DNA from: Octopus vulgaris
Lineage: Eukaryota
Direction: 5' to 3'
Assembly (NCBI GenBank): GCA_951406725.2
Contig: OX597814.1
Span: forward strand, 133,300,001-133,364,000
DNA: 64,000 bases
The notes below the pieces were generated by a model that saw only the letters and a list, made by a program, of their open reading frames with translations, made no database searches and had not been told where the DNA came from. A program made the translations under genes and the position numbers. The stretch's first letter is position 1. The number at the start of each line of letters is the position of its first letter. Positions 14,011 to 49,541 of the stretch are shown here, piece by piece.

Positions 14011-14867
14011 GTACAAACGAAAAAGTAAAAGAGAAACAACAGAAAAGGCATTAAATTTGTGTAGGAAGAGTAAAAGGAAATAGGTGGTGGAAAGTTTGTT
14101 CTTTGTTTTTGTATTTATGGAATGTTAGCAGTAGCAACTGACTGGAAGATGTTAAAGGATTACTAAGTGATGCAGATGATGCTATATATGGTAAACGTGA
14201 GCTTGGGCTTCATTTATTTCTTTTGTTATGGGTAGCTGTCCATGTATCCACTAGGACTATGGCTGCATAATGATCACGAAAGGCGGGAAGATGCGCAAAG
14301 TTGGTTGAAAATGATAGAGATGTGGAGGGAGGGGATCTGTTTGGATGTGCGAATGTCATTGTCTATATAATTGTATGTGTTGCTAATGATGTTTAACCCA
14401 GATCTGCCTTAATGATGCAGACCCTGAATCAAAGGCGTTTCTGTTATGACTAATTTGTCTTTATTTCTCTGGCATTGCTTATTTAGAATTATATTATCTA
14501 ATGTTTCTTCTTTAAGGAAATAAAGAAAATTTGATATTAGGTGAAAGATTTGTTTGCTACTCAAAGCAAACTGAATACATAGAAATCTTTCCTTCGCTCT
14601 ATTTATATATGTTGATATATATGTTTATTAGTGTTTCAGTATGTTTTAGTTTGCGTGTAGGAACATGTAAAAGGAATTATTTGCAAAATCGTGTTGAGTT
14701 CAAATGTCTACGTGTACGAATTATTGGATTATCAACTTCTGGGATTTTCGCTCAAAGTGATTGCATGGCCGTTTTGAACTTCTGAATAGTTATTGAACTA
14801 ATTCCCCGGCGTATGCAGCACGCGATCTAGATTTACTACATTGAAAGTGCCTGTCCAACAGTGATTG

Positions 14868-20050: not shown

Positions 20051-20662
20051 TCATATGTTGTGGTGTGCGCTATTGCTCCATTCTAGTTTTCTATTCAGGC
20101 TAGGTTTATTTTCTATTATATGTGTAGCTTCTGTAATTTGTCTAATTGTTGCATCTGTTCTATGTGTGGACAATATCTTAATCTCTATGTTATTGATTGA
20201 TCCCCCGTGTTCTTGTTCGGCGTGTTGGTACAGAATCGATGAGCTTTTACCTTCCTTGAGTTGTCTCCAATGTTCATTCACCCGCTCACCAATGCTTCTT
20301 GCAGTTTCCCCTACGTATGTTACTGTCTTGTTACTGCATCGTCCCTCTATACATCTTATACTATAGACCACATTTCTGGCTTTACAGTTCGTTTGTGGGC
20401 TAAATCTACATACAGTGCAATAGTTATCCGTACAGAGAGTTCTACTAAAAGGATAGGTTCTACCAATTATAGATCTGATAGGGTTGCCTGGCTTTTCAAC
20501 AACCTTAATTCTTAGTTTAAGTTTATCTAGGGTCCTTCTAAAGCGGTACGCTAGTTCACCTCCAGGGGTGGTGTCAACGAACATGACACTCTGGTATTTA
20601 TGGCTATCATACCAAGAGTTGGCCTTCCTTATTTTCTTTTTGTCCTTTCTATAGTGTTCCAT
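20051..20662 (-). CDS. PLE Cys-rich linker + GIY-YIG endonuclease (frameshifted continuation of the RT ORF)
   Basis: CTDNYCTVC...NVVYSIRC...[16 protein letters not shown]...[15 protein letters not shown]. Confidence 0.88.
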
Positions 20663-22875
20663 GACTTGTTCCTATAGAGTGGGCAAATCCCATTCCTATC
20701 ATTACATAATATATTATCAAATTTCTTCATGGCTCCTTTGTATACTCTGATCCTTTCTTTATGGCTGTAACCTGAGAACTGCATGCGGTGAATGAAATAC
20801 TGTATGTGTCTCTTTAATTCTGTAGGCTCGCACATGCGTGACACATTTCTCATTATTCTGACGAGGTCTGCCATCAAAATATTGAATTTGGCATTGCCCG
20901 CAATGGCTGAGTTCCGGTGGATCAGGTATTTTGAGGCCATAGGTTTTGCATAGTATGAATGAAGGATTTGGGTTTTATTTTTCACAATTTCTAGCCAGAG
21001 TTCAGTGTCTAGTACTGGTAGTCTATGGTTGGGGTGTTTAGTGGGGTAGTCTATTGTGACCTTAATACTCTGGTGGATGGAGTTAGCTATTTGCTGGATG
21101 CTCTCCATAGTATTAGTTTCTATTACTATATCAACAGTACTTTCTTGTGGGGGTGCCTTTACTACTATATTGATATCATCAACATAGCGAGAGTACATGT
21201 TTACGAGTATGGATTTCTGCAGTAGGCATTCTTTAAGCCTTCTGTCCCACCATACCATGAAGAGGTTGGCCACATCACCAGCGATACTAACACCGATGGC
21301 TGCCCCCTCGTCCTGGGCATATATTTTATTATTAAATTTAAATGTGTGGCCTTTTAGGGTAACTCTTATACTAGCTCCTAGTGCATGTGCGATCATTTTC
21401 TTTACCTGATGGACATTTGCGGGGCTCCGTATGGCTCTGGTCCATCCGCGCCATCTTTCTATATGTGTCTTCCTAGCCATAGAAGTAATTGTAGGCGGTC
21501 TACCTCTTAAACATCTACTGGGGCAGAAACTACTAAGATTATGTTTATCTAAGTATTCACTATTATATGTCAGTCTAAGTAGGAGGCCCAGTTCTTCTGT
21601 GTCGACATTACAGAACTCCACCTGGCTCTCGTTGATCATCTCCACGCACTTCTCCACTGCAAAATCTACGTCAATCGATGGGTATAGGGATACCACATCC
21701 ATGCTACCTACTATACATCCTGTCAAGTCACAAGTTTTGTTACAGTCACTGATCCTGCTTAGGAGATCTTCTGTGCTGTCACATACATCAGGTGACATCC
21801 TGATTATAGGGCGTATGATCATTGAGAGGAAGTAGGAGATTCTGTAATTGCTAGCGATATTCGCTCCACAGACTGGTCTTGTTGGTGGTCCTGCTATAGG
21901 GTCAGTAAAACCTTTATGGTCCTTGCGAAGTCCATACAGTGCCGGGATATCATTGTTCCAGGCTTGGAAATTCTTTGCAGTACGTTTCTGAGGTCCCAGA
22001 ACAATTGTCCACATCATCATGTGGGCATTGAGGACCTTTTCTCTCTCCTCATGCGCCTGTACAGTTGTTACTTTTGTATTGGCGATATGAGGTTGCATTG
22101 CCTGGATGTAGTTCGGTAAGCTGTCTATTGACATCCTGCCGGACTTATCCGTGGGAAGGCATATCACCTCTCCGTTCCTCGTGCGCTGAATGAGCTTCTG
22201 TAGGCCACATGCAGGTTTAATCCCTAGTTGTTGGGCATCTGTCTTATTCTGTCTCTGTCTCTTAATGTATAAACCTAAAATCTGTCTAAGTTTGGTCCTA
22301 GCTATAGTGAACTGTGCTTCCATGTGGTCATTAGTACGTCTTGGGATGTATACCCTTTTGTTGAAGGGTAATGTTGTTGGATAAATTCGGTTCATGCAGT
22401 AAGTTTTGTCGCATACGTTGAAGAATTGAGTGTCAAAGGGATGGGTATACATGTCAATGGTCTCTCTAGGGTTATCTTCATTATCGTTACTGTTTCCAAC
22501 ATCAGCCTTCCTATTATTATTATCACCATTACCACTACTACTACTACTACTAGTATTCCTATTACCACCACAACTATCACTACTATCCTCATTACTACTT
22601 CTACTGTTACCATCACCACTACTACTACCACTATTATTGTTATTACCTTTATTCCTACCATTGCCATTATTACTATCATCGCTAGTGATATATTCATTGT
22701 TCCTGTTTCTGGTATATGTGTTGTTTATATTAGTGTTGGGTTTTATGTCTGTCTGCTGGTCCCTGTCAATCCCCCTGTTGCGGTCGTTATTTTTGTTCCT
22801 ATGAGTATTGTTATCTGTTTCAAGTCCGCTGACTCCCTGTCCAAGGATCCTGTTGCATTCAACTTTATTCTCCAT
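20629..22875 (-). CDS. PLE reverse transcriptase
   Basis: LPTDKSG, LYGLRKDHK, TRPV, SMDVVSLYPSI, QDEGAAIG, YSRYVDDI, LPVLD. Residues of the track ORF upstream of ~22888 come from the inverted pLTR. Confidence 0.9.
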   Translation of the reverse strand: MENKVECNRILGQGVSGLETDNNTHRNKNNDRNRGIDRDQQTDIKPNTNINNTYTRNRNNEYITSDDSNNGNGRNKGNNNNSGSSSGDGNSRSSNEDSSDSCGGNRNTSSSSSSGNGDNNNRKADVGNSNDNEDNPRETIDMYTHPFDTQFFNVCDKTYCMNRIYPTTLPFNKRVYIPRRTNDHMEAQFTIARTKLRQILGLYIKRQRQNKTDAQQLGIKPACGLQKLIQRTRNGEVICLPTDKSGRMSIDSLPNYIQAMQPHIANTKVTTVQAHEEREKVLNAHMMMWTIVLGPQKRTAKNFQAWNNDIPALYGLRKDHKGFTDPIAGPPTRPVCGANIASNYRISYFLSMIIRPIIRMSPDVCDSTEDLLSRISDCNKTCDLTGCIVGSMDVVSLYPSIDVDFAVEKCVEMINESQVEFCNVDTEELGLLLRLTYNSEYLDKHNLSSFCPSRCLRGRPPTITSMARKTHIERWRGWTRAIRSPANVHQVKKMIAHALGASIRVTLKGHTFKFNNKIYAQDEGAAIGVSIAGDVANLFMVWWDRRLKECLLQKSILVNMYSRYVDDINIVVKAPPQESTVDIVIETNTMESIQQIANSIHQSIKVTIDYPTKHPNHRLPVLDTELWLEIVKNKTQILHSYYAKPMASKYLIHRNSAIAGNAKFNILMADLVRIMRNVSRMCEPTELKRHIQYFIHRMQFSGYSHKERIRVYKGAMKKFDNILCNDRNGICPLYRNKSWNTIERTKRK

Positions 22876-23387
22876 CGTGACCCCTATGATTAGATTTATT
22901 ATTATTATTACTAATATTGTTGTTATACATACATACAAGCATATGTAATGATAATAATGGGTGGATGTAAACACATGAATAAAATTAGAACAAAAGCAAC
23001 AACAACAAAAACAAAATACAAATTACAAGAATGTATATAACCAGAAGATACAAATATTACAGGCATCCCCCCCACACACACACTAAATAAACATAGACGC
23101 ACATAGAGATATAAGCATGCGCAAATGAAGACATACAATAGAAATACAAAATGGCTGACGGTTAGTAAGGAGAGACACAAGTAAGTGAGAAGAAAACAAA
23201 GGACCACTGATGCGGTCACAGGAGTGTGACGAAAGAACTTTGGCCGAAATAAGATTAAGATTAATGTAAAAAATAAATATCACTGAAGCAAAATAACACC
23301 AAATATATAGTGCGTGTGTTTTTATTGGCTAAACTGGCAATATGACCATTCCGAAATATAACAATATATATATATATATATATATAC

Positions 23388-32595: not shown

Positions 32596-32610
32596 TAAAT
32601 ACATACATAC

Positions 32611-32668
<58 letters not shown>

Positions 32669-32717
32669 AAACAAGTCAAAAATAGAAAATGCTAAGATGA
32701 TTTTATAGTGAATCTTT

Positions 32718-32755
32718 CAGTACCGGTTTCGGTCATTTTGAGACCTTTTCAACTG
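32718..32755 (-). ncRNA. Minimal hammerhead, U3-A8 core variant
   Basis: Reverse complement of the fold at 40413-40450. Confidence 0.75.
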
Positions 32756-33401
32756 TAACGATTAAATAATTAAATTTAGAAAAATTAGAAGAAAAGTTTT
32801 TTTAAAAGAATATTTCTGTAGTAGTGTTCAGATATAAGTAGCATTCTGCCTTTCTCTGACTCCCTTGTTTGCACTTGTGTGTTCGAGGTCGTTTTGAGTT
32901 CTTGGTAGGATAGGTGAAGAATAATGAGGCTGATGTGGAGAGGGGGTGAGGAAATCTGGGAATGCCTTAATGGTCGTATTTTGAATGGTCAGTGGCTGAC
33001 AGTAGTCGCAGTTCAATTCAGGAATTGTTTATGGAATTTGCGTAGGCGTTATACTGAAAGACATTAGTGACAAGGTTAAGGGGTGGAAGGTGGAGAAGTA
33101 GAAGAAGAAGGAGATGGCGATGTTGATGATGATGATGATGAAGAAGAAGAAGAAGAAGAAGAAGAAGAAGAAGAAGAAGAAGAAGGAGAAGATGGTAGTG
33201 ATGATGGTGGTGATGATGATGACGACGATGATGATGATAATGATGATGATGAAGAAGAAGAGGAAGAAGAAGAAGAAACAGAGAAGGGAGAATATGAATG
33301 GGTGTAAGTTTAGCTGTGATGGGGCTGATTAGTAATGGATTCTATGGAGTGTAATATTTGTGTGTGTATATATATTTCTTTTATTCTAAAGTTGAGGTAT
33401 A

Positions 33402-34710
33402 TTAATTGTTTGTCGTAGACCCGTTAAGAAGTGGCTTGTATTTTGTAAGAAAGAGATTTTCTTTACTTATTCGTTGTCTCGAGGTTGTATCGTCCCTAAA
33501 TTGGTAGAGGGGGAAAATTCTGAAGTTTGGTGTTTTTTTGTTGGCGCAAGTATCTATGTGTTGGCTAAAAGCTATTTTTCTGTTTTGGGGAATTTTTATC
33601 TGGGATCTGTGCAAACCATTTTTTGTTTGGCCTATGTACTGCTCTTGACACCAGGAGCAGGTTAGTGAGTATATTAGGTTCTCCGAAGCACATGTGAAGT
33701 TGCTTTTCACTGTAAACCGTTGTCCCTGTTTGAAGGAGAACTCTGATCCCTCAATTAGATAGTCGCATATCCCGCAATTGGGTCTTCCACATTTTTTTAC
33801 TGTCGGCTTCTGTGTTGAAGAGTGAATTCGGGCTTGTGTAAGGAGACTTTTCATGGATCTAGGCTGTCTTTTGCTTTTTATGATCGTGTGTGTTTGGAGG
33901 ATTGTGTTCATTCTGTGGTCTTTTTTTAGGAGGGGTATGTTGTGGAGGATGGTGTCGAAGGCTTCGTTATTGAGAGGGTTGTGTGTGGAGATGTATGGTA
34001 AGGCTTTTGGTTGTAGGTTTTTCTTTGATTTGGGATGTCTCAGTTCCTTGATGTTAAGTTGAAGGGCACGTTGAATGCACTTGTCAATAAGTGAAGGTGG
34101 ATAGTTCCTGGTGATAAGGGTATCTTTTAGTTCTTGTAGTCGTGTGTCTCTGGTGTTTGCGTTAGAGACTATAGTGCATATCCTTTTTGCTAGATTGAAG
34201 GGGATATTCATCCTGGTGCGTTTGGGGTGGCATGAATTGAATGGAAGATATTGCTTAGAGTCTGTAGGCTTATAGTATATGTCTGTTTCTATTATATTAT
34301 TAGCTTTCTTAATGAGGATATCGAGGAAGGGGAATTGTTGTTGGCTATATTCCATCGTGAATTGGATGTTTACGTCCAGTCCGTTTAAAATTTTCTGGAA
34401 TTCTATGAGTTTTTCTATATTTTTATGCCAAAGGATGAAACAGTCATCTAGATATCTCTTCCAGTTGTTTTCTATGTAGATAGAGAAAGGGCTGCCATAT
34501 CTTTCTAGAACCTTACGATACAGACTGATCTCTAGGTATCCTATGACCAGGTTGGCAAAGGAGGGGGCCATTCGTGTACCCATCGCAGTCCCCGATTTTT
34601 GTCGGTAGAAGTTGTCATTGAAGGCGAAGAAGTTATTTTCCAGGATGAATTTAACCCCTTCTATCACAAATTCTTTTTTGATGCGGTGTGGTAGTTCGTT
34701 GACGTGATTC
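33402..34710 (-). pseudogene. Truncated PLE RT/GIY-YIG ORF
   Basis: Nearly identical to the C-half of 37422..39575 but lacks RKRMAL (18 nt) in the GIY-YIG domain. The Met-rich N-terminus comes from the microsatellite. Confidence 0.9.
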
Positions 34711-35112
34711 ATCATCATCTTCTTCATCATCATCATCATCATCAACATCGCCATCTTCTTCTTCTTCTACTTCTCCACCTTCCACCCTTTAACCTTGTCA
34801 CTAATGTCTTTCAGTATAACGCCTACGCAAATTCCATAAACAATTCCTGAATTGAACTGCGACTACTGTCAGCCGCTGACCATTCAAAATACGACCATTA
34901 AGGCATTCCCAGATTTCCCCACCCCCTCTCCACATCAGCCTCATTATTCTTCACCTATCCTACCAAGAACTCAAAACGACCTCGAACACACAAGTGCAAA
35001 CAAGGGAGTCAGAGAAAGGCAGAATGCTACTTATATCTGAACACTACTACAGAAATATTCTTTTAAAAAAACTTTTCTTCTAATTTTTCTAAATTTAATT
35101 ATTTAATCGTTA

Positions 35113-35150
35113 CAGTTGAAAAGGTCTCAAAATGACCGAAACCGGTACTG
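35113..35150 (+). ncRNA. Minimal hammerhead, U3-A8 core variant
   Basis: CAG-UUGAAAA-GGUC ucaaaau GACC-GAAA-CCGG-UA-CUG. Confidence 0.75.
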
Positions 35151-35314
35151 AAAGATTCACTATAAAATCATCTTAGCATTTTCTATTTTTGACTTGTTTT
35201 TTCATATATATCAACTCGTGTGTTCCTTTCCACCCATATATATATATATATGTATATATATGAAAAAACAAGTAAAAAATAGAAAATGCTAAAATAATTT
35301 TATAGTGAACATTT

Positions 35315-35352
35315 CAGTACCGGTTTCGGTCATTTTGAGACCTTTTCAACTG
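35315..35352 (-). ncRNA. Minimal hammerhead, U3-A8 core variant
   Basis: Reverse complement of the fold at 40413-40450. Confidence 0.75.
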
Positions 35353-36549
35353 TAACGATTAAATAATTAAATTTAGAAAAATTAGAAGAAAAGTTTTTTT
35401 AAAAGAATATTTCTATAGTAGTGTTCAGATTTAAGTGGCATTCTGCCTTTCTCTGACTCCCTTGTTTGCACTTGTGTGTTCGAGGTAGTTGTGAGTTCTT
35501 GGTAGGGTAGTAGAGGGAAGGCTGGTGAGGAAAGGGGGTGGGAGAATCTGGGAGTGCCCTGATGGTCGTATTTTGAATGGTCAGTGGCGGCTGGCAGTCT
35601 CAGTTCAATTCAGGATTGTTTATAGAATTAGCGTAGGTGTTATACTAAAAAACATTAGTGACAAACTTAAGGGGTAGGGGGTGGAGAAGAAGAAGAAGAA
35701 GAAGAAGAAGAAGAAGAAGGAGGAAGGAGAAGATGATGGTGATGGTGGTGATGATTATGACGACGATGATGATGATAACGATGATGATGAAGAAGAAGAA
35801 GAAGAAGAAGAAGAAGAAGAAGAAGAAGAAGAAGAAGAAGGAGGAGAAGGAGAAGATGGTGGTGATGATGGTGGTGATGATGATGACGCCGATGATGATG
35901 ATAACGATGATGATGAAGAAGAAGAAGAAGAAGAAGAAGAAGAAGAAGAAGAAGAAGAAGAAGAAGGAGGAGAAGGAGAAGATGGTGGTGATGATGGTGG
36001 TGATGATGATGACGCCGATGATGATGATAACGATGATGATGAAGAAGAAGAAGAAGAAAAAAACAGAGAAGGGAGAATATGAATGGGTGTAAATATAGCT
36101 ATGAAGGGGCTGATTAGTAATGGATTCTATGGAGTGTAGTATTTGTGTGTGTATATATATATTTTTCTTTTATTCTAAAGTTGAGGTATATTAATTGTTT
36201 GTCGTAGACCCGTTAAGAAGTGGCTTGTATTTTGTAATAAAGAGATTTTCTTTACTTATTCTTTGTCTCGAGGTTGTATCGTCCCTAAATTGGTAGAGGG
36301 GGAAAATTCTGAAGTTTGGTGTTTTTTTGTTGGCGCAAGTATCTATGTGTTGGCTAAAAGCTATTTTTCTGTTTTGGGGAATTTTTATCTGGGATCTGTG
36401 CAGGGCCATTCGTTTACGCAAACCATTTTTTGTTTGGCCTATGTACTGCTCTTGACACCCGGAGCAGGTTAGTGAGTATATTAGGTTCTCCGAAGCACAT
36501 GTGAAGTTGCTTTTCACTGTAAACCGTTGTCCCTGTTTGAAGGAGGAAA

Positions 36550-37284
36550 TTGAGGGCCCAACTTCTGAAATTGAGGGCCCAAACGAATGAGGATAAAATA
36601 AAATCCACCGATGAAGATATCAACGAAGAAATTCGCAAAATGACCCAAGGCCCAGATCAAGAGAAGTTCTCCAAACTATGGAAAGAGGACTGTGAAAAAG
36701 AAGAACTAAAATCTCTCCAACGCTGGGAGAAAAGCGCCACTTGGTTCTCAGACTATGAAGCCGTCTTTCAAACAGAGCACGCCTCCAACAACCCTTTCCA
36801 GAAAATAAGAAAACCAAAACAACACCCAAACACCGATACACACCCGTCTAAAAATCGGAACCTTCACTACTATCAAAAAAAGAATACAGGACCTAACCCC
36901 AACTCTGTAAGCAGCCAGCGATACAATATCAGGAATACCCCCACTTCAAGCAGAGAAAGGATAAATCAACACCCACAGCATAGACACTGCAACCTCATCC
37001 CCACCCAAAGGAGTTACCAACGAAATCTTCGTCCCATTAACCGGTTAAACAACCATGCACAACAAACCCACACCACTTGCAATGATTACCAACGAAGGCC
37101 TCCTAGAACACCACACCCGAATATGGGATATCGGGATGCTCTCCTCAATACTGCTCCAAGAACACACACCACAAATCACAACAGGAGACCCCTAATCAAC
37201 AAAGAACAACTATATACTAGCTACCGTCCCAACCACCGCATTCATTTTTTAGACCCAATACGCAAACACAGAGACACAAGATAG
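36550..37284 (+). CDS. PLE upstream ORF (helical then basic/disordered), 5'-truncated
   Basis: 244-aa open frame ending ...IHFLDPIRKHRDTR*. Overlaps the RT frame (-1) by ~60 nt. Confidence 0.75.
   Translation: MRAQLLKLRAQTNEDKIKSTDEDINEEIRKMTQGPDQEKFSKLWKEDCEKEELKSLQRWEKSATWFSDYEAVFQTEHASNNPFQKIRKPKQHPNTDTHPSKNRNLHYYQKKNTGPNPNSVSSQRYNIRNTPTSSRERINQHPQHRHCNLIPTQRSYQRNLRPINRLNNHAQQTHTTCNDYQRRPPRTPHPNMGYRDALLNTAPRTHTTNHNRRPLINKEQLYTSYRPNHRIHFLDPIRKHRDTR
37245..37251 (+). promoter_or_regulatory. Candidate -1 ribosomal frameshift slippery heptamer T TTT TTA
   Basis: In-phase X XXY YYZ within the only overlap (37221-37281) between ORF1 and the RT frame. Confidence 0.75.
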
Positions 37285-39575
37285 CACCAAACAAGCAGGA
37301 GGAACCAAAAGTAATAAAAATTATTAATCTAACTCACAAGGAACTAACAGCAAACCAAATAAACATACTTTCCAAAGGACTCAAGTTTACACCCACCCCA
37401 CAACACCCCAACTACAATGAAATGAAAGAAGACATCGCAGAATTCTGCAGAAAATTAAGACTTACTGAGGAGCTATACGATAAATACAACGAGGACGAAT
37501 CGTTAGCCAGAAATAGGAGTAACTACACCCCCTCGAAAGGTAAGAATAAAACACTTGATGATTTCTGTGACCACATATCAAATTACCCATATCAACATAT
37601 GCACAAACAAAAACACAAACCAAACTTCAGCAAAAAAGAATGGGCTGAGTTGAACAAATTAAAACTAGATAAAACAATAACAATCAAAGAGGCCGATAAA
37701 GGGAGTGCTGTTGTCTTAATGGATACGACATTTTACATAACTTTGGTACTTTCTATGCTGGAAGACACAACATACTATGAAAAGGCACAAAACTACAGTC
37801 AACAAAAAATAATGAGGGAACTAAAATCCATATTAAACCCATACAAAGCAGGGCTCACCGACAAAGAATATGATTATATGACCAATTTCACAAGTAAAAC
37901 TAGCCAATTCTACGGTATACCTAAGATCCACAAAAGTGAAAAAATAAGCAACGCATGCAAGATAGCTACAGACAAAATAATTAAAGTCCCTAATCCTAAT
38001 GACCTCAAATTGAGACCCATAATAGCAGGTCCCGCATGCGAAACCCACCGCCTCAGTAACTTTTTAGACACCCTGTTAAAACCACTCCTCAAACATGTCA
38101 AAAGCTATATAAGGGACGACTTAGATATGCTCAATCACCTACCGAATACTATAAACAAAAACACCATACTGGTATCCTTCGATGTAGTCAACCTCTACTC
38201 CAATATCCCCCACAACCTAGGACTAGAGGCAATCCAATTCTGGCTAGAGAATCACGCCAACGAACTACCACACCGCATCAAAAAAGAATTTGTGATAGAA
38301 GGGGTTAAATTCATCCTGGAAAATAACTTCTTCGCCTTCAATGACAACTTCTACCGACAAAAATCGGGGACTGCGATGGGTACACGAATGGCCCCCTCCT
38401 TTGCCAACCTAGTCATAGGATACCTAGAGATCAGTCTGTATCGTAAGGTTCTAGAAAGATACGGCAGCCCTTTCTCCATCTACATAGAAAACAACTGGAA
38501 GAGATATCTAGATGACTGTTTCATCCTTTGGCATAAAAATATAGAAAAACTCATAGAATTCCAGAAAATTTTAAACGGACTGGACGTAAACATCCAATTC
38601 ACGATGGAATATAGCCAACAACAACTCCCCTTCCTCGATATCCTCATTAAGAAAGCTAATAATATAATAGAAACAGACATATACTATAAGCCTACAGACT
38701 CTAAGCAATATCTTCCATTCAATTCATGCCACCCCAGACACACCAGGATGAATATCCCCTTCAATCTAGCAAAAAGGATATGCACTATAGTCTCTAACGC
38801 AAACACCAGAGACACACGACTACAAGAACTAAAAGATACCCTAATCACCAGGAACTATCCACCTTCACTTATTGACAAGTGCATTCAACGTGCCCTTCAA
38901 CTTAACATCAAGGAACTGAGACATCCCAAATCAAAGAAAAACTTACAACCAAAAGCCTTACCATACATCTCCACACACAACCCTCTCAATAACGAAGCCT
39001 TCGACACCATCCTCCACAACATACCCCTCCTAAAAAAAGACCACAGAATGAACACAATCCTCCAAACACACACGATCATAAAAAGCAAAAGACAGCCTAG
39101 ATCCATGAAAAGTCTCCTTACACAAGCCCGAATTCACTCTTCAACACAGAAGCCGACAGTAAAAAAATGTGGAAGACCCAATTGCGGGATATGCGACTAT
39201 CTAATCGAGGGTTCTGAGTTCTCCTTCAAACAGGGACAACGGTTTACAGTGAAAAGCAACTTCACATGTGCTTCGGAGAACCTAATATACTCACTAACCT
39301 GCTCCGGGTGTCAAGAGCAGTACATAGGCCAAACAAAAAATGGTTTGCGTAAACGAATGGCCCTGCACAGATCCCAGATAAAAATTCCCCAAAACAGAAA
39401 AATAGCTTTTAGCCAACACATAGATACTTGCGCCAACAAAAAAACACCAAACTTCAGAATTTTCCCCCTCTACCAATTTAGGGACGATACAACCTCGAGA
39501 CAAAGAATAAGTAAAGAAAATCTCTTTATTACAAAATACAAGCCACTTCTTAACGGGTCTACGACAAACAATTAA
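37248..39575 (+). CDS. PLE reverse transcriptase + Zn-finger linker + GIY-YIG endonuclease, uninterrupted
   Basis: Frame is open upstream of ATG 37422 (IINLT...ILSKGLKFTPTP). Motifs: ADKG, YGIPKIHK, LRPII, SFDVVNLYSNIP, GTAMGT, RYLDDCF, CGRPNCGIC, NLIYSLTC...YIGQT...RMALH. Confidence 0.95.
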   Translation, partial: FRPNTQTQRHKIAPNKQEEPKVIKIINLTHKELTANQINILSKGLKFTPTPQHPNYNEMKEDIAEFCRKLRLTEELYDKYNEDESLARNRSNYTPSKGKNKTLDDFCDHISNYPYQHMHKQKHKPNFSKKEWAELNKLKLDKTITIKEADKGSAVVLMDTTFYITLVLSMLEDTTYYEKAQNYSQQKIMRELKSILNPYKAGLTDKEYDYMTNFTSKTSQFYGIPKIHKSEKISNACKIATDKIIKVPNPNDLKLRPIIAGPACETHRLSNFLDTLLKPLLKHVKSYIRDDLDMLNHLPNTINKNTILVSFDVVNLYSNIPHNLGLEAIQFWLENHANELPHRIKKEFVIEGVKFILENNFFAFNDNFYRQKSGTAMGTRMAPSFANLVIGYLEISLYRKVLERYGSPFSIYIENNWKRYLDDCFILWHKNIEKLIEFQKILNGLDVNIQFTMEYSQQQLPFLDILIKKANNIIETDIYYKPTDSKQYLPFNSCHPRHTRMNIPFNLAKRICTIVSNANTRDTRLQELKDTLITRNYPPSLIDKCIQRALQLNIKELRHPKSKKNLQPKALPYISTHNPLNNEAFDTILHNIPLLKKDHRMNTILQTHTIIKSKRQPRSMKSLLTQARIHSSTQKPTVKKCGRPNCGICDYLIEGSEFSFKQGQRFTVKSNFTCASENLIYSLTCSGCQEQYIGQTKNGLRKRMALHRSQIKIPQNRKIAFSQHIDTCANKKTPNFRIFPLYQFRDDTTSRQRISKENLFITKYKPLLNGSTTNN

Positions 39576-40412
39576 TATACCTCAACTTTAGAATAAAAGA
39601 AAAAAATATATATACACACACAAATACTACACTCCATAGAATCCATTACTAATCAGCCCCTTCATAGCTATATTTACACCCATTCATATTCTCCCTTCTC
39701 TGTTTTTTTCTTCTTCTTCTTCTTCATCATCATCGTTATCATCATCATCGGCGTCATCATCATCACCACCATCATCACCACCATCTTCTCCTTCTCCTCC
39801 TTCTTCTTCTTCTTCTTCTTCTTCTTCTTCTTCTTCTTCTTCTTCTTCTTCTTCTTCTTCATCATCATCGTTATCATCATCATCGGCGTCATCATCATCA
39901 CCACCATCATCACCACCATCTTCTCCTTCTCCTCCTTCTTCTTCTTCTTCTTCTTCTTCTTCTTCTTCTTCTTCTTCATCATCATCGTTATCATCATCAT
40001 CGTCGTCATAATCATCACCACCATCACCATCATCTTCTCCTTCTCCTTCTTCTTCTTCTTCTTCTTCTTCTTCTTCTTCTCCACCCCCTACCCCTTAAGT
40101 TTGTCACTAATGTTTTTTAGTATAACACCTACGCTAATTCTATAAACAATCCTGAATTGAACTGAGACTGCCAGCCGCCACTGACCATTCAAAATACGAC
40201 CATCAGGGCACTCCCAGATTCTCCCACCCCCTTTCCTCACCAGCCTTCCCTCTACTACCCTACCAAGAACTCACAACTACCTCGAACACACAAGTGCAAA
40301 CAAGGGAGTCAGAGAAAGGCAGAATGCCACTTAAATCTGAACACTACTATAGAAATATTCTTTTAAAAAAACTTTTCTTCTAATTTTTCTAAATTTAATT
40401 ATTTAATCGTTA

Positions 40413-40450
40413 CAGTTGAAAAGGTCTCAAAATGACCGAAACCGGTACTG
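40413..40450 (+). ncRNA. Minimal hammerhead, U3-A8 core variant, in the sense pLTR
   Basis: Stem I CAG/CUG, core UUGAAAA, stem II GGUC/GACC, GAAA, palindromic stem III ACCGGU, cut after GUA (40447). Confidence 0.78.
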
Positions 40451-40695
40451 AAATGTTCACTATAAAATTATTTTAGCATTTTCTATTTTTTACTTGTTTT
40501 TTCATATATATCAACTCGTGTGTTCCTTTTCACCCTTATACATATGTATATATATATATACATACATACATACATACATACATACATACATACATACATA
40601 CATACATACATACATACATACATACAAATATATATATAACTAGTGGTTTAGTCATTTTGATTGCTATATCTAGCATGCCGGTACTACTTGTTAGT

Positions 40696-42230: not shown

Positions 42231-43518
42231 CGAGGAACGTTCTATAAGTAATGCCCCTGACCCACTTGCAGTTGTTTGATCTAGCTGACATTTTGCATGT
42301 GCAATTATTTATATCTTTATAGATTAAGTGGCAAATTACAGCTCTGAACTGATTGTGGTTTCTGATTTACAGGTGCTTGAACTGAGTCAAGTGTGAAATG
42401 GAGCCTGTTGAGTGTCGAGCTGTGATCCGGTTTTGTATTTGAAAGGACACACACCACGGGAGACTTTTGATGAAATGAAAGTAACTTGTGGTAATGATGC
42501 CCCATCATATGACCTTGTAAAACGCTGGAATCGTGAATTCAAACATGGTCGGAACTCTGTGGAAACAGCTCCCAGATCTGGTCGCCCCCATTCTGCCATT
42601 GATGAGGCATCTGTCCGTCAAGTTGAGGCTGCCATTTTGGAAGATCGACGCATAACTATTCGCCAAATAGCCCATAAGGTCAAGATTAGTACCGGGTCAG
42701 TGGAAACTATTATTCATGACCATTTGAGTATGCAAAAGGTGTCTGCCAGATGGATTCCCAGGCTGCTCACACCTTTCCAGAAGCAAGAACGCGTCGAGTG
42801 CTCGAGGATGAATTTGGAGATGTGCCAAGAAGATGAGTCAAAATTTTTCAAAAGACTGATAATACAGGATGGAACCTGGGTCCATCACTATGATCCAGAG
42901 ACCAAAGCCCAGTCAATGCAGTGGAAGCACCGTGACTCACCTCCTCCAAAGAGGCAAGTGTGCTGCCCTCCGCTGGCAGGTCATGCTCACAGTCTTCTGG
43001 GACCAGGACGGAGTAGTGATGACAGGTTTCCTGGCAAAGGGTACCACAATTACAGGAGCCTATTATGCTTCACTTTTGAGGAAATTAAGAGAAGCTATCA
43101 AAATCAAGAGGCGGGGCAAGATCAGCAAAGGCATCCTCCTCCTGTAGGACAACGCTCCGGTCCACAACTCGCGTGTCGCCAGATCAGAAGCACAGGCGTG
43201 CGGCTATGAACTCCCCCCCATCCCTCCTACACTCTTGACCTTGCACCCTCTGATTTTCACCTCTTCCCAGCCATGAAGTTGTTTTTGAAAGGAAAGCGTT
43301 TCCCAGATGATGCAGCCTTGATTTCTGAAGTCACTTCGTGGTTGGAGACCAAGCTGGGGTCTTCTACAAAAACGGTTTCCAGAGCTGCATCAAACGATGG
43401 GAGAAATGCATAATTCTGGGTGCTTCCTATGTAGAAAAAGACTAATAACTGTGCCAAGTTTCGTTGATCTACTGCTATAGGAAGTGGGTCAGGGGCATTA
43501 CTTATTGAACGCCCCTCG
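42231..43518 (+). mobile_element. Full-length (1288 bp) decayed mariner, irritans-like TIR
   Basis: ~37-bp TIRs CGAGG..CGTTC.ATAAGTAATGCCCCTGACCCACTT, TA on both sides. Transposase has frameshifts and a TAG at the QDN motif. Confidence 0.95.
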
Positions 43519-47479: not shown

Positions 47480-47703
47480 GGACTCAATAGAGAGGACTCA
47501 ATAGCAATTACACCCCCACCAAAGGTAAGAATAAAGCCTTAGACTGCTATTGTGACTACATAACTAATTTCCCGTTTCAATTCATCAAGAAACAAAAACA
47601 CAGCCCTAACTTCAACAAAAGAGAATGGAACGACCTCATCAAACTAAGAGAAGACAAAACAATAACAATTAAGGAGGCAGATAAGGGCAACGCGATAGTA
47701 ATA

Positions 47704-49541
47704 ATGAATACAAACAATTATAAAAATTTAGTGCTATCCCTATTAAGAGATGAAACGTATTATGAAAGGGCCCAACAGTATAACCAGCAAAAAATAATGC
47801 ATAACCTTAGGACATTAATCAACACATACCAAGAAGGACTCACGAACAAGGAGTATGAATACATCACTAACTTCAAATGCAAATCGAGTTTGTTCTATGG
47901 TATCCCTAAGGTACACAAAAGCCAAACCATTAGAGAAACGTGCAAAACATCCACCGACACACTCATCAAAATCCCTTCACCAAATGATATTAAACTAAGA
48001 CCGATAATAGCAGGACCAGCATGTGAAACTCACCGCCTCAGCAATTTCTTAGACACACTTCTTAAACCTTTCCTAAAACACATCAAAAGCTACGTAAGAG
48101 ACGATATAGATATGCTCAACCACCTCCCTAAAACAGTCAATGAGAAAACCCTTCTAGTATCATTCGACGTAGTTAATCTTTATTCTAACATCCCTCACAA
48201 CCTAGGAATAGAAGCGATCACCTTCTGGCTGAATAACTACCCCTTTGAACTCCCAACTCGCATAAACAAAGACCTTATAATAGAAGGACTTAGATTCATT
48301 TTAGAGAACAATTATTTTATTTTTGACAATGATTTCTACAGGCAAAGATCGGGAACAGCGATGGGCACGCGTACTGCACCATCTTTTGCCAACCGAGTGA
48401 TGGGATACCTCGAGAAAATACTATACCGGATGACACTCGAGAAATATGGAAACACCTTCGCCACCTATATCCATAACAACTGGAAAAGATACCTCGATGA
48501 CTGTTTCATCATCTGGGACAAAGGTATAGAGAAACTTGAGGAATTTAAAATACTATTAAATGGAATAAATGACAATATACAATTCACGATGGACCACAAC
48601 GAAAAAGAATTACCATTTTTAGACATCCTCATTAAGAAAACCGGCAACAAAATAGAGACAGATATCTACTATAAACCGACAGACTCTAAACAGTACCTAC
48701 CCTTTGATTCATGCCACCCACGACACACTAGAATGAATGTCCCTTTTTGTTTAGCTAGAAGGATTTGCACCATAATATCAGACACAAACACCCGACACAC
48801 ACGTCTCACAAATAGAAACTATCCACAGCCCCTAATAGACAGTGCAATCCAACGGGTACTTAAATTAAGTATAGAAGACCTGAGACAAACAAAACCAAAA
48901 AAGAAAGAACAATTAAAAACCCTTCCCTACATTTCTACACACAACCCACTCAACAATGAGGCCTTCAACACCATACTACAAAGCACAGCCCTACTAAAGG
49001 GAGACCCAAAGATGAACGGATCCTCGAAACACACACCATCATTAAAAGTAAACGGCAACCAAAATCCTTGAAAAGGATTTTAACCCAAGCTACACTGCAC
49101 TCAACATCAACCACAAAACCAGCAGTTAGAAAATGTGGAAGGCCCAACTGCGGAATCTGTGTCATCTTGAAAGAAGGATCAGAATTTATACTGGAACAAG
49201 GCCACCAGTTCACCATTAGAACAAACTTCACCTGCGCATCAGAAAACTTAATTTACGTCATAACATGCGCAGGCTGCAATAGGCAGTATATAGGCCATAC
49301 AAAAAATAGCTTACGTAACAGGATGGCGGTGCATAAATCACAAATTAGAAACCCTGATTACCGCAAAATACCGGTCAGCGGACACATAGATAGATGTGCT
49401 GGAAATGTAAATCCGAAATTTACAACTAACCCGCTCTATAAATTCAGTGACAACGCAACCTTCACACAACGCCAAAATAAAGAACTATATTTCATAAAAA
49501 AATTTAGACCAAGTTTAAACACCCTGGGCCAGGAATACTAA
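47704..49541 (+). pseudogene. PLE RT + GIY-YIG, one frameshift (~49020) and a short in-frame deletion
   Basis: YGIPKVHK, SFDVVNLYSNIP, RYLDDCF, CGRPNCGIC, NLIYVITC...YIGHT. Confidence 0.9.

Follow-up and report, generated by a model that had tools for sequence, protein, structure and literature searches.

The window, i.e., the whole stretch of DNA that was analysed, comprises 64,000 nucleotides of Octopus vulgaris, and a retrotransposon with two overlapping reading frames lies on its forward strand. The downstream frame is intact over 784 codons from stop to stop (37221–39575) and encodes a reverse transcriptase (RT) and an endonuclease (EN), while the upstream frame, here called ORF1, covers 247 codons (36541–37284); they overlap by 64 nt. 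The RT frame is -1 relative to ORF1. The overlap contains the heptamer T TTT TTA in phase, the ORF1 codons there being TTT and TTA, and the RT frame there reads F-F-R-P-N-T-Q. This arrangement has the slippery part of a canonical -1 signal, an X XXY YYZ heptamer in phase within a 0/-1 overlap. The first ATG of the RT frame is found at 37422, downstream of the conserved motif IINL..KGLKFTPTP. An initial annotation of this DNA had given the same RT opening, ORF1 closure, overlap and heptamer phase, and had placed a pre-RT motif of Penelope-like elements (PLEs) ahead of the first ATG; all of these were reproduced by a check of the sequence and its frames. The features of the element and of its neighbourhood are as follows.

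32610–34710, - strand: a shorter second copy from this family with the 3′ half of RT, EN and pseudo-LTR, 96% identical; it ends short of the frameshift site
34754–35260, + strand: extra pseudo-LTR copy, 89.5% identical to 40060–40560
35254–36545, - strand: the element's 3′ end (39221–40511) copied in inverted orientation, 98.5% identical by self-BLAST, adjoining the 5′ truncation
36560–37284, + strand: 3′ part of ORF1, a helical conserved core to about 36807 followed by a basic low-complexity tail (pI 11.5); an ORF1 profile of 88 members recognises the core (E 1.7e-21, probability 99.4%)
37218–37220, + strand: stop codon (TAG) closing the RT frame upstream; a common family variant at 37217 puts a second stop just ahead
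37221–39575, + strand: intact -1-frame ORF of 784 aa for RT, CxxC linker and GIY-YIG endonuclease (Pfam; Cys650/655/658 invariant)
37245–37251, + strand: slippery heptamer T TTT TTA, the predicted -1 frameshift site; T TTT TTA/G in 8/8 close relatives
37282–37284, + strand: ORF1 stop (TAG), 11 codons past the slippery Leu codon; equal 33-nt spacing in relatives L048, L049, L056, L062, L069 and L118
37320–37400, + strand: conserved PLE N-terminal motif (IINL..GxKF), invariant or near-invariant in a 48-row alignment
39576–40537, + strand: 3′ UTR containing a pseudo-LTR and trinucleotide repeats, then a (TACA)n/(TA)n microsatellite
40402–40466, + strand: weak motif resembling a hammerhead ribozyme, within the pseudo-LTR (Rfam HH9, E 0.53, 19.7 bits where the gathering score is 52)

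In the RT–EN ORF, Pfam RVT_1 is matched by residues 263–450 (E 3.5e-8) and GIY-YIG by residues 688–775 (E 3.8e-4), the latter with 21.1 bits, just below the cut-off of 22.6. An alignment of 48 RT proteins shows the CCHH residues of the endonuclease to be kept, C694 and C697 invariantly and H716 and H733 nearly so, and the N-terminal GxKF and DKG motifs of PLE-type RTs are likewise invariant or near-invariant. The linker joining RT to EN, C650-x4-C655-x2-C658, conforms to CX2-5CxxC with a spacer of Neptune length in a by-eye comparison with the published supplementary Fig. S2, and the RT4 region resembles, again by eye, the Neptune rows of that supplement (PMC8557442). By this likeness in the linker and RT4, its relatives in the tree being unnamed, the element is classified from its sequence as a Neptune-type Penelope-like retrotransposon. 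The Neptune clade of endonuclease-bearing PLEs reportedly goes back to Arkhipova in 2006. RT homologues with names are mostly bivalve, and the best 120 of 438 are 433–839 aa long, though up to 1,372 aa was permitted.

The element's own DNA starts at 36560, and the stop-to-stop frame of ORF1 begins in unrelated inverted DNA. Contigs from all four sequencing runs examined diverge from the window before 36560 and carry up to 332 nt more of element DNA upstream. The window copy is 5′-truncated and has lost the start of ORF1, so that the mechanism discussed below pertains to full-length copies of the family; the window copy records the slippery site of an active family. As in PLE-type insertions, there are an inverted 1.3-kb copy of the 3′ end and four pseudo-LTR copies, whose palindromic layout is typical of Penelope-like elements, and the array terminates in (TA)n and (TACA)n microsatellites. 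The hammerhead-like motif recurs in 4/4 pseudo-LTR copies (Rfam HH9 19.7–22.9 bits, far below the gathering score of 52), and a hammerhead-like pattern is also found in the terminal repeats of four relatives (L046, L048, L053 and L049). Where the inverted 3′ copy meets the truncated copy in sense orientation, a 16-nt direct repeat is present (36546–36561 and 36567–36582), resembling a trace as left by a template jump in reverse transcription.

Some in-phase X XXY YYN heptamer is expected by chance in about 16% of overlaps of this size, and T6-purine specifically in about 0.3%. The weight of the case for frameshifting lies in conservation among relatives and not in the lone window site. Copies of the same family were examined through contigs of public runs, 20 of the 24 listed runs containing 82–91% of the window's words; four (X1, X12, X19 and X20), whose RNA status is uncertain, were compared with the window. 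Contigs free of gaps span the junction in three of the four: X1 with three changes in 1,141 nt, X19 with eight in 844, and X20, from a diverged subfamily 84% identical, with 35 in 217. Record 9 of X12 stops 20 letters beyond the heptamer and was excluded from the bridging count, and one low-depth contig of X19 is decayed, with eight gaps. Of 223 substitutions the comparison lists 40, and of 891 records 32, and rare variants are lost from contigs; within it, no substitution falls in the heptamer, and none of the nine listed indels lies within 37245–37251. Two substitutions listed in the overlap are both silent for ORF1, while another creates a second RT-frame stop at 37215–37217. Between the ORF1 stop and the first ATG of RT, eight variants are listed: four silent, two Lys-to-Arg, two other and no stops. 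The initial annotation had pointed to an extra T in other copies as the sign that a single continuous ORF had merely been interrupted; no added T occurs among the listed indels.

For more distant comparison, the 48-protein RT alignment was used to fetch 45 + 80 = 125 loci, 70 of which hold the RT N-terminal motif. Close relatives were defined as the loci with at least 95 bits and upstream DNA (seven) plus L056, which is of the same family as L069; L086 likewise reaches 95 bits and comes without upstream DNA. In all eight, the RT frame is closed 20–46 codons above the motif, and ORF1 lies in the frame requiring a -1 shift. The in-phase heptamer is T TTT TTA in six (L046, L047, L049, L053, L056 and L069) and T TTT TTG in two (L002 and L048). 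These relatives represent about six to seven independent families with 36–46% RT identity. L046 is complete as a tandem unit of 3,699 nt, and L048 likewise as an element set between 342-nt direct repeats; L046, too, is bounded by direct repeats. ORF1 carries breaks farther upstream in L002, L056 and L069, and in L047 and L049 the contig ends within it. In a quick RT tree of 39 locus rows with at least 380 open codons, one outgroup and 13 proteins, from which L049, L053, L056 and L069 were omitted as too short, the window element and the five close relatives of sufficient length form one clade (SH-aLRT 98). Among all 70 loci, an upstream ORF of at least 90 codons stands in the -1 arrangement in 17, with an in-phase heptamer in the overlap in 14 of them and without a canonical one in three; of the remainder, four have a long upstream ORF in the other offset, 20 have one long ORF (other clades), 19 have neither, and 10 lie near an edge.

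These results bear on the alternative of one continuous ORF that a deletion in the T run, peculiar to this copy or introduced in sequencing, has interrupted. Homopolymers are indeed prone to indels, and one long ORF is found in the 20 related loci of other clades. In addition, two homologues known as proteins only continue in a single frame from the tail of ORF1 to the RT motif; these, the gene model P0041 and P0136, which ends soon after, may be gene-model artefacts or decayed copies. A broken single ORF is contradicted by the gap-free contigs, by the equal offset in 8/8 close relatives and by the ORF1 homologues, the best 150 of 921 of which include no fused ORF1–RT protein and are all at most 546 aa. 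Furthermore, many stops stand upstream in the RT frame, and ORF1 has a stop of its own. Longer, fused relatives of the window ORF1 were also absent from 260 candidates, which is weak evidence. Such a break has next to no probability, and the heptamer and its offset are, judging from the sequences compared, not a copy-specific indel.

The heptamer and offset are conserved beyond what the protein requires. In nine loci, the window and its eight close relatives, T6-purine occurs in phase at 0 of 6,294 other codon slots, and T TTT TTA/G encodes none of 22 other Phe-Leu pairs as compared with 9/9 at the junctions. This contrast bears on the possibility that RT–EN is translated separately, from its own or a non-AUG start or by re-initiation, with Phe-Leu merely a protein motif of the ORF1 tail. 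Many database RT proteins, as gene finders call them, do start a few residues above the motif, and the published account of a killifish Neptune gives it two ORFs that do not overlap and, in the available text, mentions no frameshift (PMC12602865). However, a protein motif would tolerate synonymous codons, which the junctions do not show, and the first ATGs in relatives lie at +4 to +114 codons, within or past the motif and at positions that are not conserved. Separate translation is thus very improbable, and it is counted as support for an ORF1–RT fusion that no AUG precedes the conserved N-terminal motif of the RT.

The T run followed by AG could also be a splice acceptor, in which case spliced RNA would join an upstream exon to the RT frame and unspliced RNA would serve for ORF1. 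T6-AG is present in 8 of the 11 T6 loci, the residue following Phe-Leu begins with G in 41/57 homologues, and PLEs are known to keep introns (PMC8557442). But the other three loci (L002, L048 and L062) have T6-GT with no AG, and AG is impossible in the remaining 16/57 homologues. A donor in the right phase within 900 nt exists in just 3/11 loci, that of the window lying outside the element, and none is shared; splicing would also leave the ORF1 offset unfixed at -1. Moreover, other clades have A AAA AAC (L074 and L070) or T TTA AAC (L077 and L080) at the same place, which are not acceptors, and none of 15 listed joints in the contigs of uncertain RNA status ends at the AG that follows the heptamer. 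Splicing is therefore considered improbable. Slippage of RNA polymerase on the T run, adding one U to some transcripts, would have an equal coding effect without any ribosomal slip, and a six-T run is present in 11/11 T6 loci. Six-nucleotide runs are short for slippage by polymerase II, the T run always begins on a codon boundary of the RT frame, as a polymerase would not need, and T TTA AAC of L077 and L080 offers no long run. Polymerase slippage, like separate translation, has very little probability in our estimate.

The preferred reading, with a probability of about 0.87, is that RT–EN is made as an ORF1–RT–EN fusion by programmed -1 ribosomal frameshifting on U UUU UUA. A majority of ribosomes would terminate at the ORF1 stop and leave a helical protein of 400–470 aa with a basic tail. 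In a minority, tRNA-Phe and tRNA-Leu on UUU UUA would re-pair one base back by tandem slippage into the -1 frame, and the slipped ribosomes would translate 776 RT–EN codons to yield a fusion of about 1,150–1,250 aa in low amount. The initial annotation had proposed the window site as a candidate for such an event, and its retention in the close relatives gives this proposal support. Points against it are the missing stimulatory structure, the likeness of T6-AG to a splice acceptor, the three -1 loci lacking a canonical heptamer, the four loci with the other offset, the 20 with one long ORF, and the proteins P0041 and P0136. Across a large branch of Neptune type, whose ORF1 family has no name, a real and conserved programmed -1 frameshift is very likely.

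The absence of an obvious downstream hairpin, noted in the initial annotation, was borne out: none of 5 segments around the site is more stably folded than its shuffles (z from +0.3 to +1.3). Across 16 junctions, local folding gives z under -2 against shuffles in only two, neither a hairpin nor a pseudoknot was recovered 5–9 nt downstream of the heptamer, with no pseudoknot signal, and a search for long-range pairing found no partner shared across junctions, its duplex controls being run on a coarser step and biased weak. The distance to the ORF1 stop is more regular. The 33-nt spacing is found in seven DNA loci with the window included, and in 25 of 69 ORF1 homologues Phe-Leu stands exactly at -12 from the end and never nearer, the last ten residues being unalignable. 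On an ORF1 tree (FastTree on 65 ORF1 cores), the 11-codon spacing is clustered, with 22/30 rows of one clade and 2/35 of the other, and changes nine times against about 19.5 in shuffles, so that inheritance explains part of the regularity. It is possible, and on balance doubtful, that ribosome traffic rather than RNA structure drives the slip, a queue behind the terminating ribosome parking on U UUU UUA at the 11-codon spacing. Queuing would have the ORF1 stop kept at least one ribosome-length (11 codons) downstream of the slippery codon, and RT output would then be coupled to the translation load of ORF1.

The core profile of ORF1 matches at least 921 clusters at 50% identity. Phe-Leu occurs within the last 40 residues in 69 of 99 homologues with a tail, as compared with 6 of 9,228 other tail positions, and this dipeptide near the ORF1 end is read as what the heptamer leaves at the protein level. 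Six ORF1 homologues gave no match above the Pfam cut-off. An AlphaFold model of L046 ORF1 consists of long helices up to residue 260 and then a disordered tail, its confidence being high at 100–270. A PDB sequence search with ORF1 retrieved designed coiled coils only (best E 2.7e-6); Foldseek gave no match at E 0.001 in PDB and viral structures, the ESM Atlas search came back blank, and VIA-align with the ORF1 model returned only generic helical bundles (best Z 8.9). From the basic tail and the position of the ORF, ORF1 is predicted to coat or chaperone the element RNA.

U UUU UUA is the slippery heptamer of HIV-1 gag-pol. The element shares with gag-pol this identical heptamer and the logic of an abundant first protein and a rare RT fusion, and the comparison drawn in the initial annotation holds for this expression logic. 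It does not appear to extend to the identity of the protein: ORF1 is predicted to be all-helical with a basic disordered tail and gave neither a Pfam nor a fold match to Gag, whose hallmarks would be a capsid fold or a CCHC zinc knuckle, and its model matched no fold beyond generic helical bundles. In HIV-1, the frameshift is stimulated by a stem-loop (PMC8915115). The window element differs in having no downstream stem-loop, in a 0-frame stop after 11 codons and in not being a virus.

Endonuclease-bearing PLEs, including the Neptune clade, are described as single-ORF elements in the passages concerned (PMC8557442, PMC6431247), and two ORFs are ascribed there only to PLEs without endonuclease (Arkhipova and Yushenova, 2019, PMC6431247). 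Unlike this description, two overlapping ORFs are present in the window and in 8/8 close relatives, with a separate Pfam-less ORF1 joined through a conserved -1 site. The initial annotation called this class one usually drawn with a single ORF. A frameshifted ORF1 is already in print for some PLE type, the legend of a published Fig. 1 mentioning an ORF1 set apart by a frameshift that comes with a pseudoknot (Craig, 2021, PMC8557442), so that for PLEs in general such an ORF1 is no novelty. The type in that legend, where the clade is left unspecified, and the window element both have a helical or coiled-coil ORF1 upstream of a PLE RT and joined to it by a frameshift, in the window element a predicted one; in contrast, the window element bears an endonuclease, and no pseudoknot was found. 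The type with frameshift and pseudoknot is reportedly that of the endonuclease-free Athena/Terminon elements of Arkhipova et al. in 2017. Those elements lack a C-terminal endonuclease and are telomeric, whereas the window element has GIY-YIG in its RT ORF and microsatellite flanks. In literature other than Arkhipova 2006, Gladyshev 2007, the 2017 Terminon paper and Repbase, no description of a Neptune frameshift was found, nor anything on a U6A heptamer acting alone; the available text of PMC3846280, PMC5718144 and a 2026 retrozyme preprint holds nothing on PLE frameshifting.

Esterase ORFs have been reported in Neptune-like PLEs (Schneider, 2013, PMC3905857; Rodriguez, 2017, PMC5408684). Like these, the window element has an extra N-terminal or upstream ORF together with an endonuclease, and three loci of that kind (L074, L077 and L080) also carry a -1 heptamer, while the window ORF1 is not an esterase. 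In the available text of the two papers no frameshift is mentioned for such elements, the word occurring once in an unrelated context in PMC5408684 and not at all in PMC3905857. In the esterase-ORF1 sister clade (L077:1–2445, L080:357–2177 and L074:181–1725), ORF1 has an SGNH/GDSL esterase-like domain, a NADAR domain is above the Pfam cut-off in L077 and L080, and A AAA AAC or T TTA AAC stands directly before the ORF1 stop. A distant PLE (L118:1417–3348) has a 643-aa ORF1 without Pfam match and T TTT TTA 33 nt from the stop, as in the window.

Telomerase has its sister group in endonuclease-bearing Penelope-like elements. Ratio control of the gag-pol type would enter an old non-LTR lineage, in which several independent heptamers are spread over the clades. 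In annotations that begin with the RT, one third of the coding sequence would go unrecorded along with the enzyme's true N-terminus, and a biochemical or mobility assay based solely on the RT ORF would be working with the wrong protein. If the site works, it would do so with no usual RNA roadblock and would offer a small, natural test case for the extent to which eukaryotic -1 frameshifting can be driven by a U6A heptamer by itself or by ribosomes queuing at a nearby stop.

Among the fetched loci, many bins of bacterial genomes contain Penelope-like elements of animals (L001–L045), probably host DNA that was mis-binned; in viral contigs, four pattern matches were seen and none was confirmed. 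Elsewhere in the window, a second family of the same clade is located at 47491–49541 (+ strand), with an RT 68% identical; it is 5′-truncated, inserted after (TA)n, and has a frame break before the endonuclease. A distant Penelope-like element at 20051–23022 (- strand) has a 797-aa RT frame with an Asn/Ser-rich N-terminus and GIY-YIG in a separate frame, and falls far outside the clade of the window element in the quick tree. A 208-codon frame at 14845–15471 matches DUF6451 weakly (E 0.001, below cut-off), and remnants of Mariner-type transposases are found at 149–904 and 42412–43209 (Pfam Transposase_1 and HTH_48).
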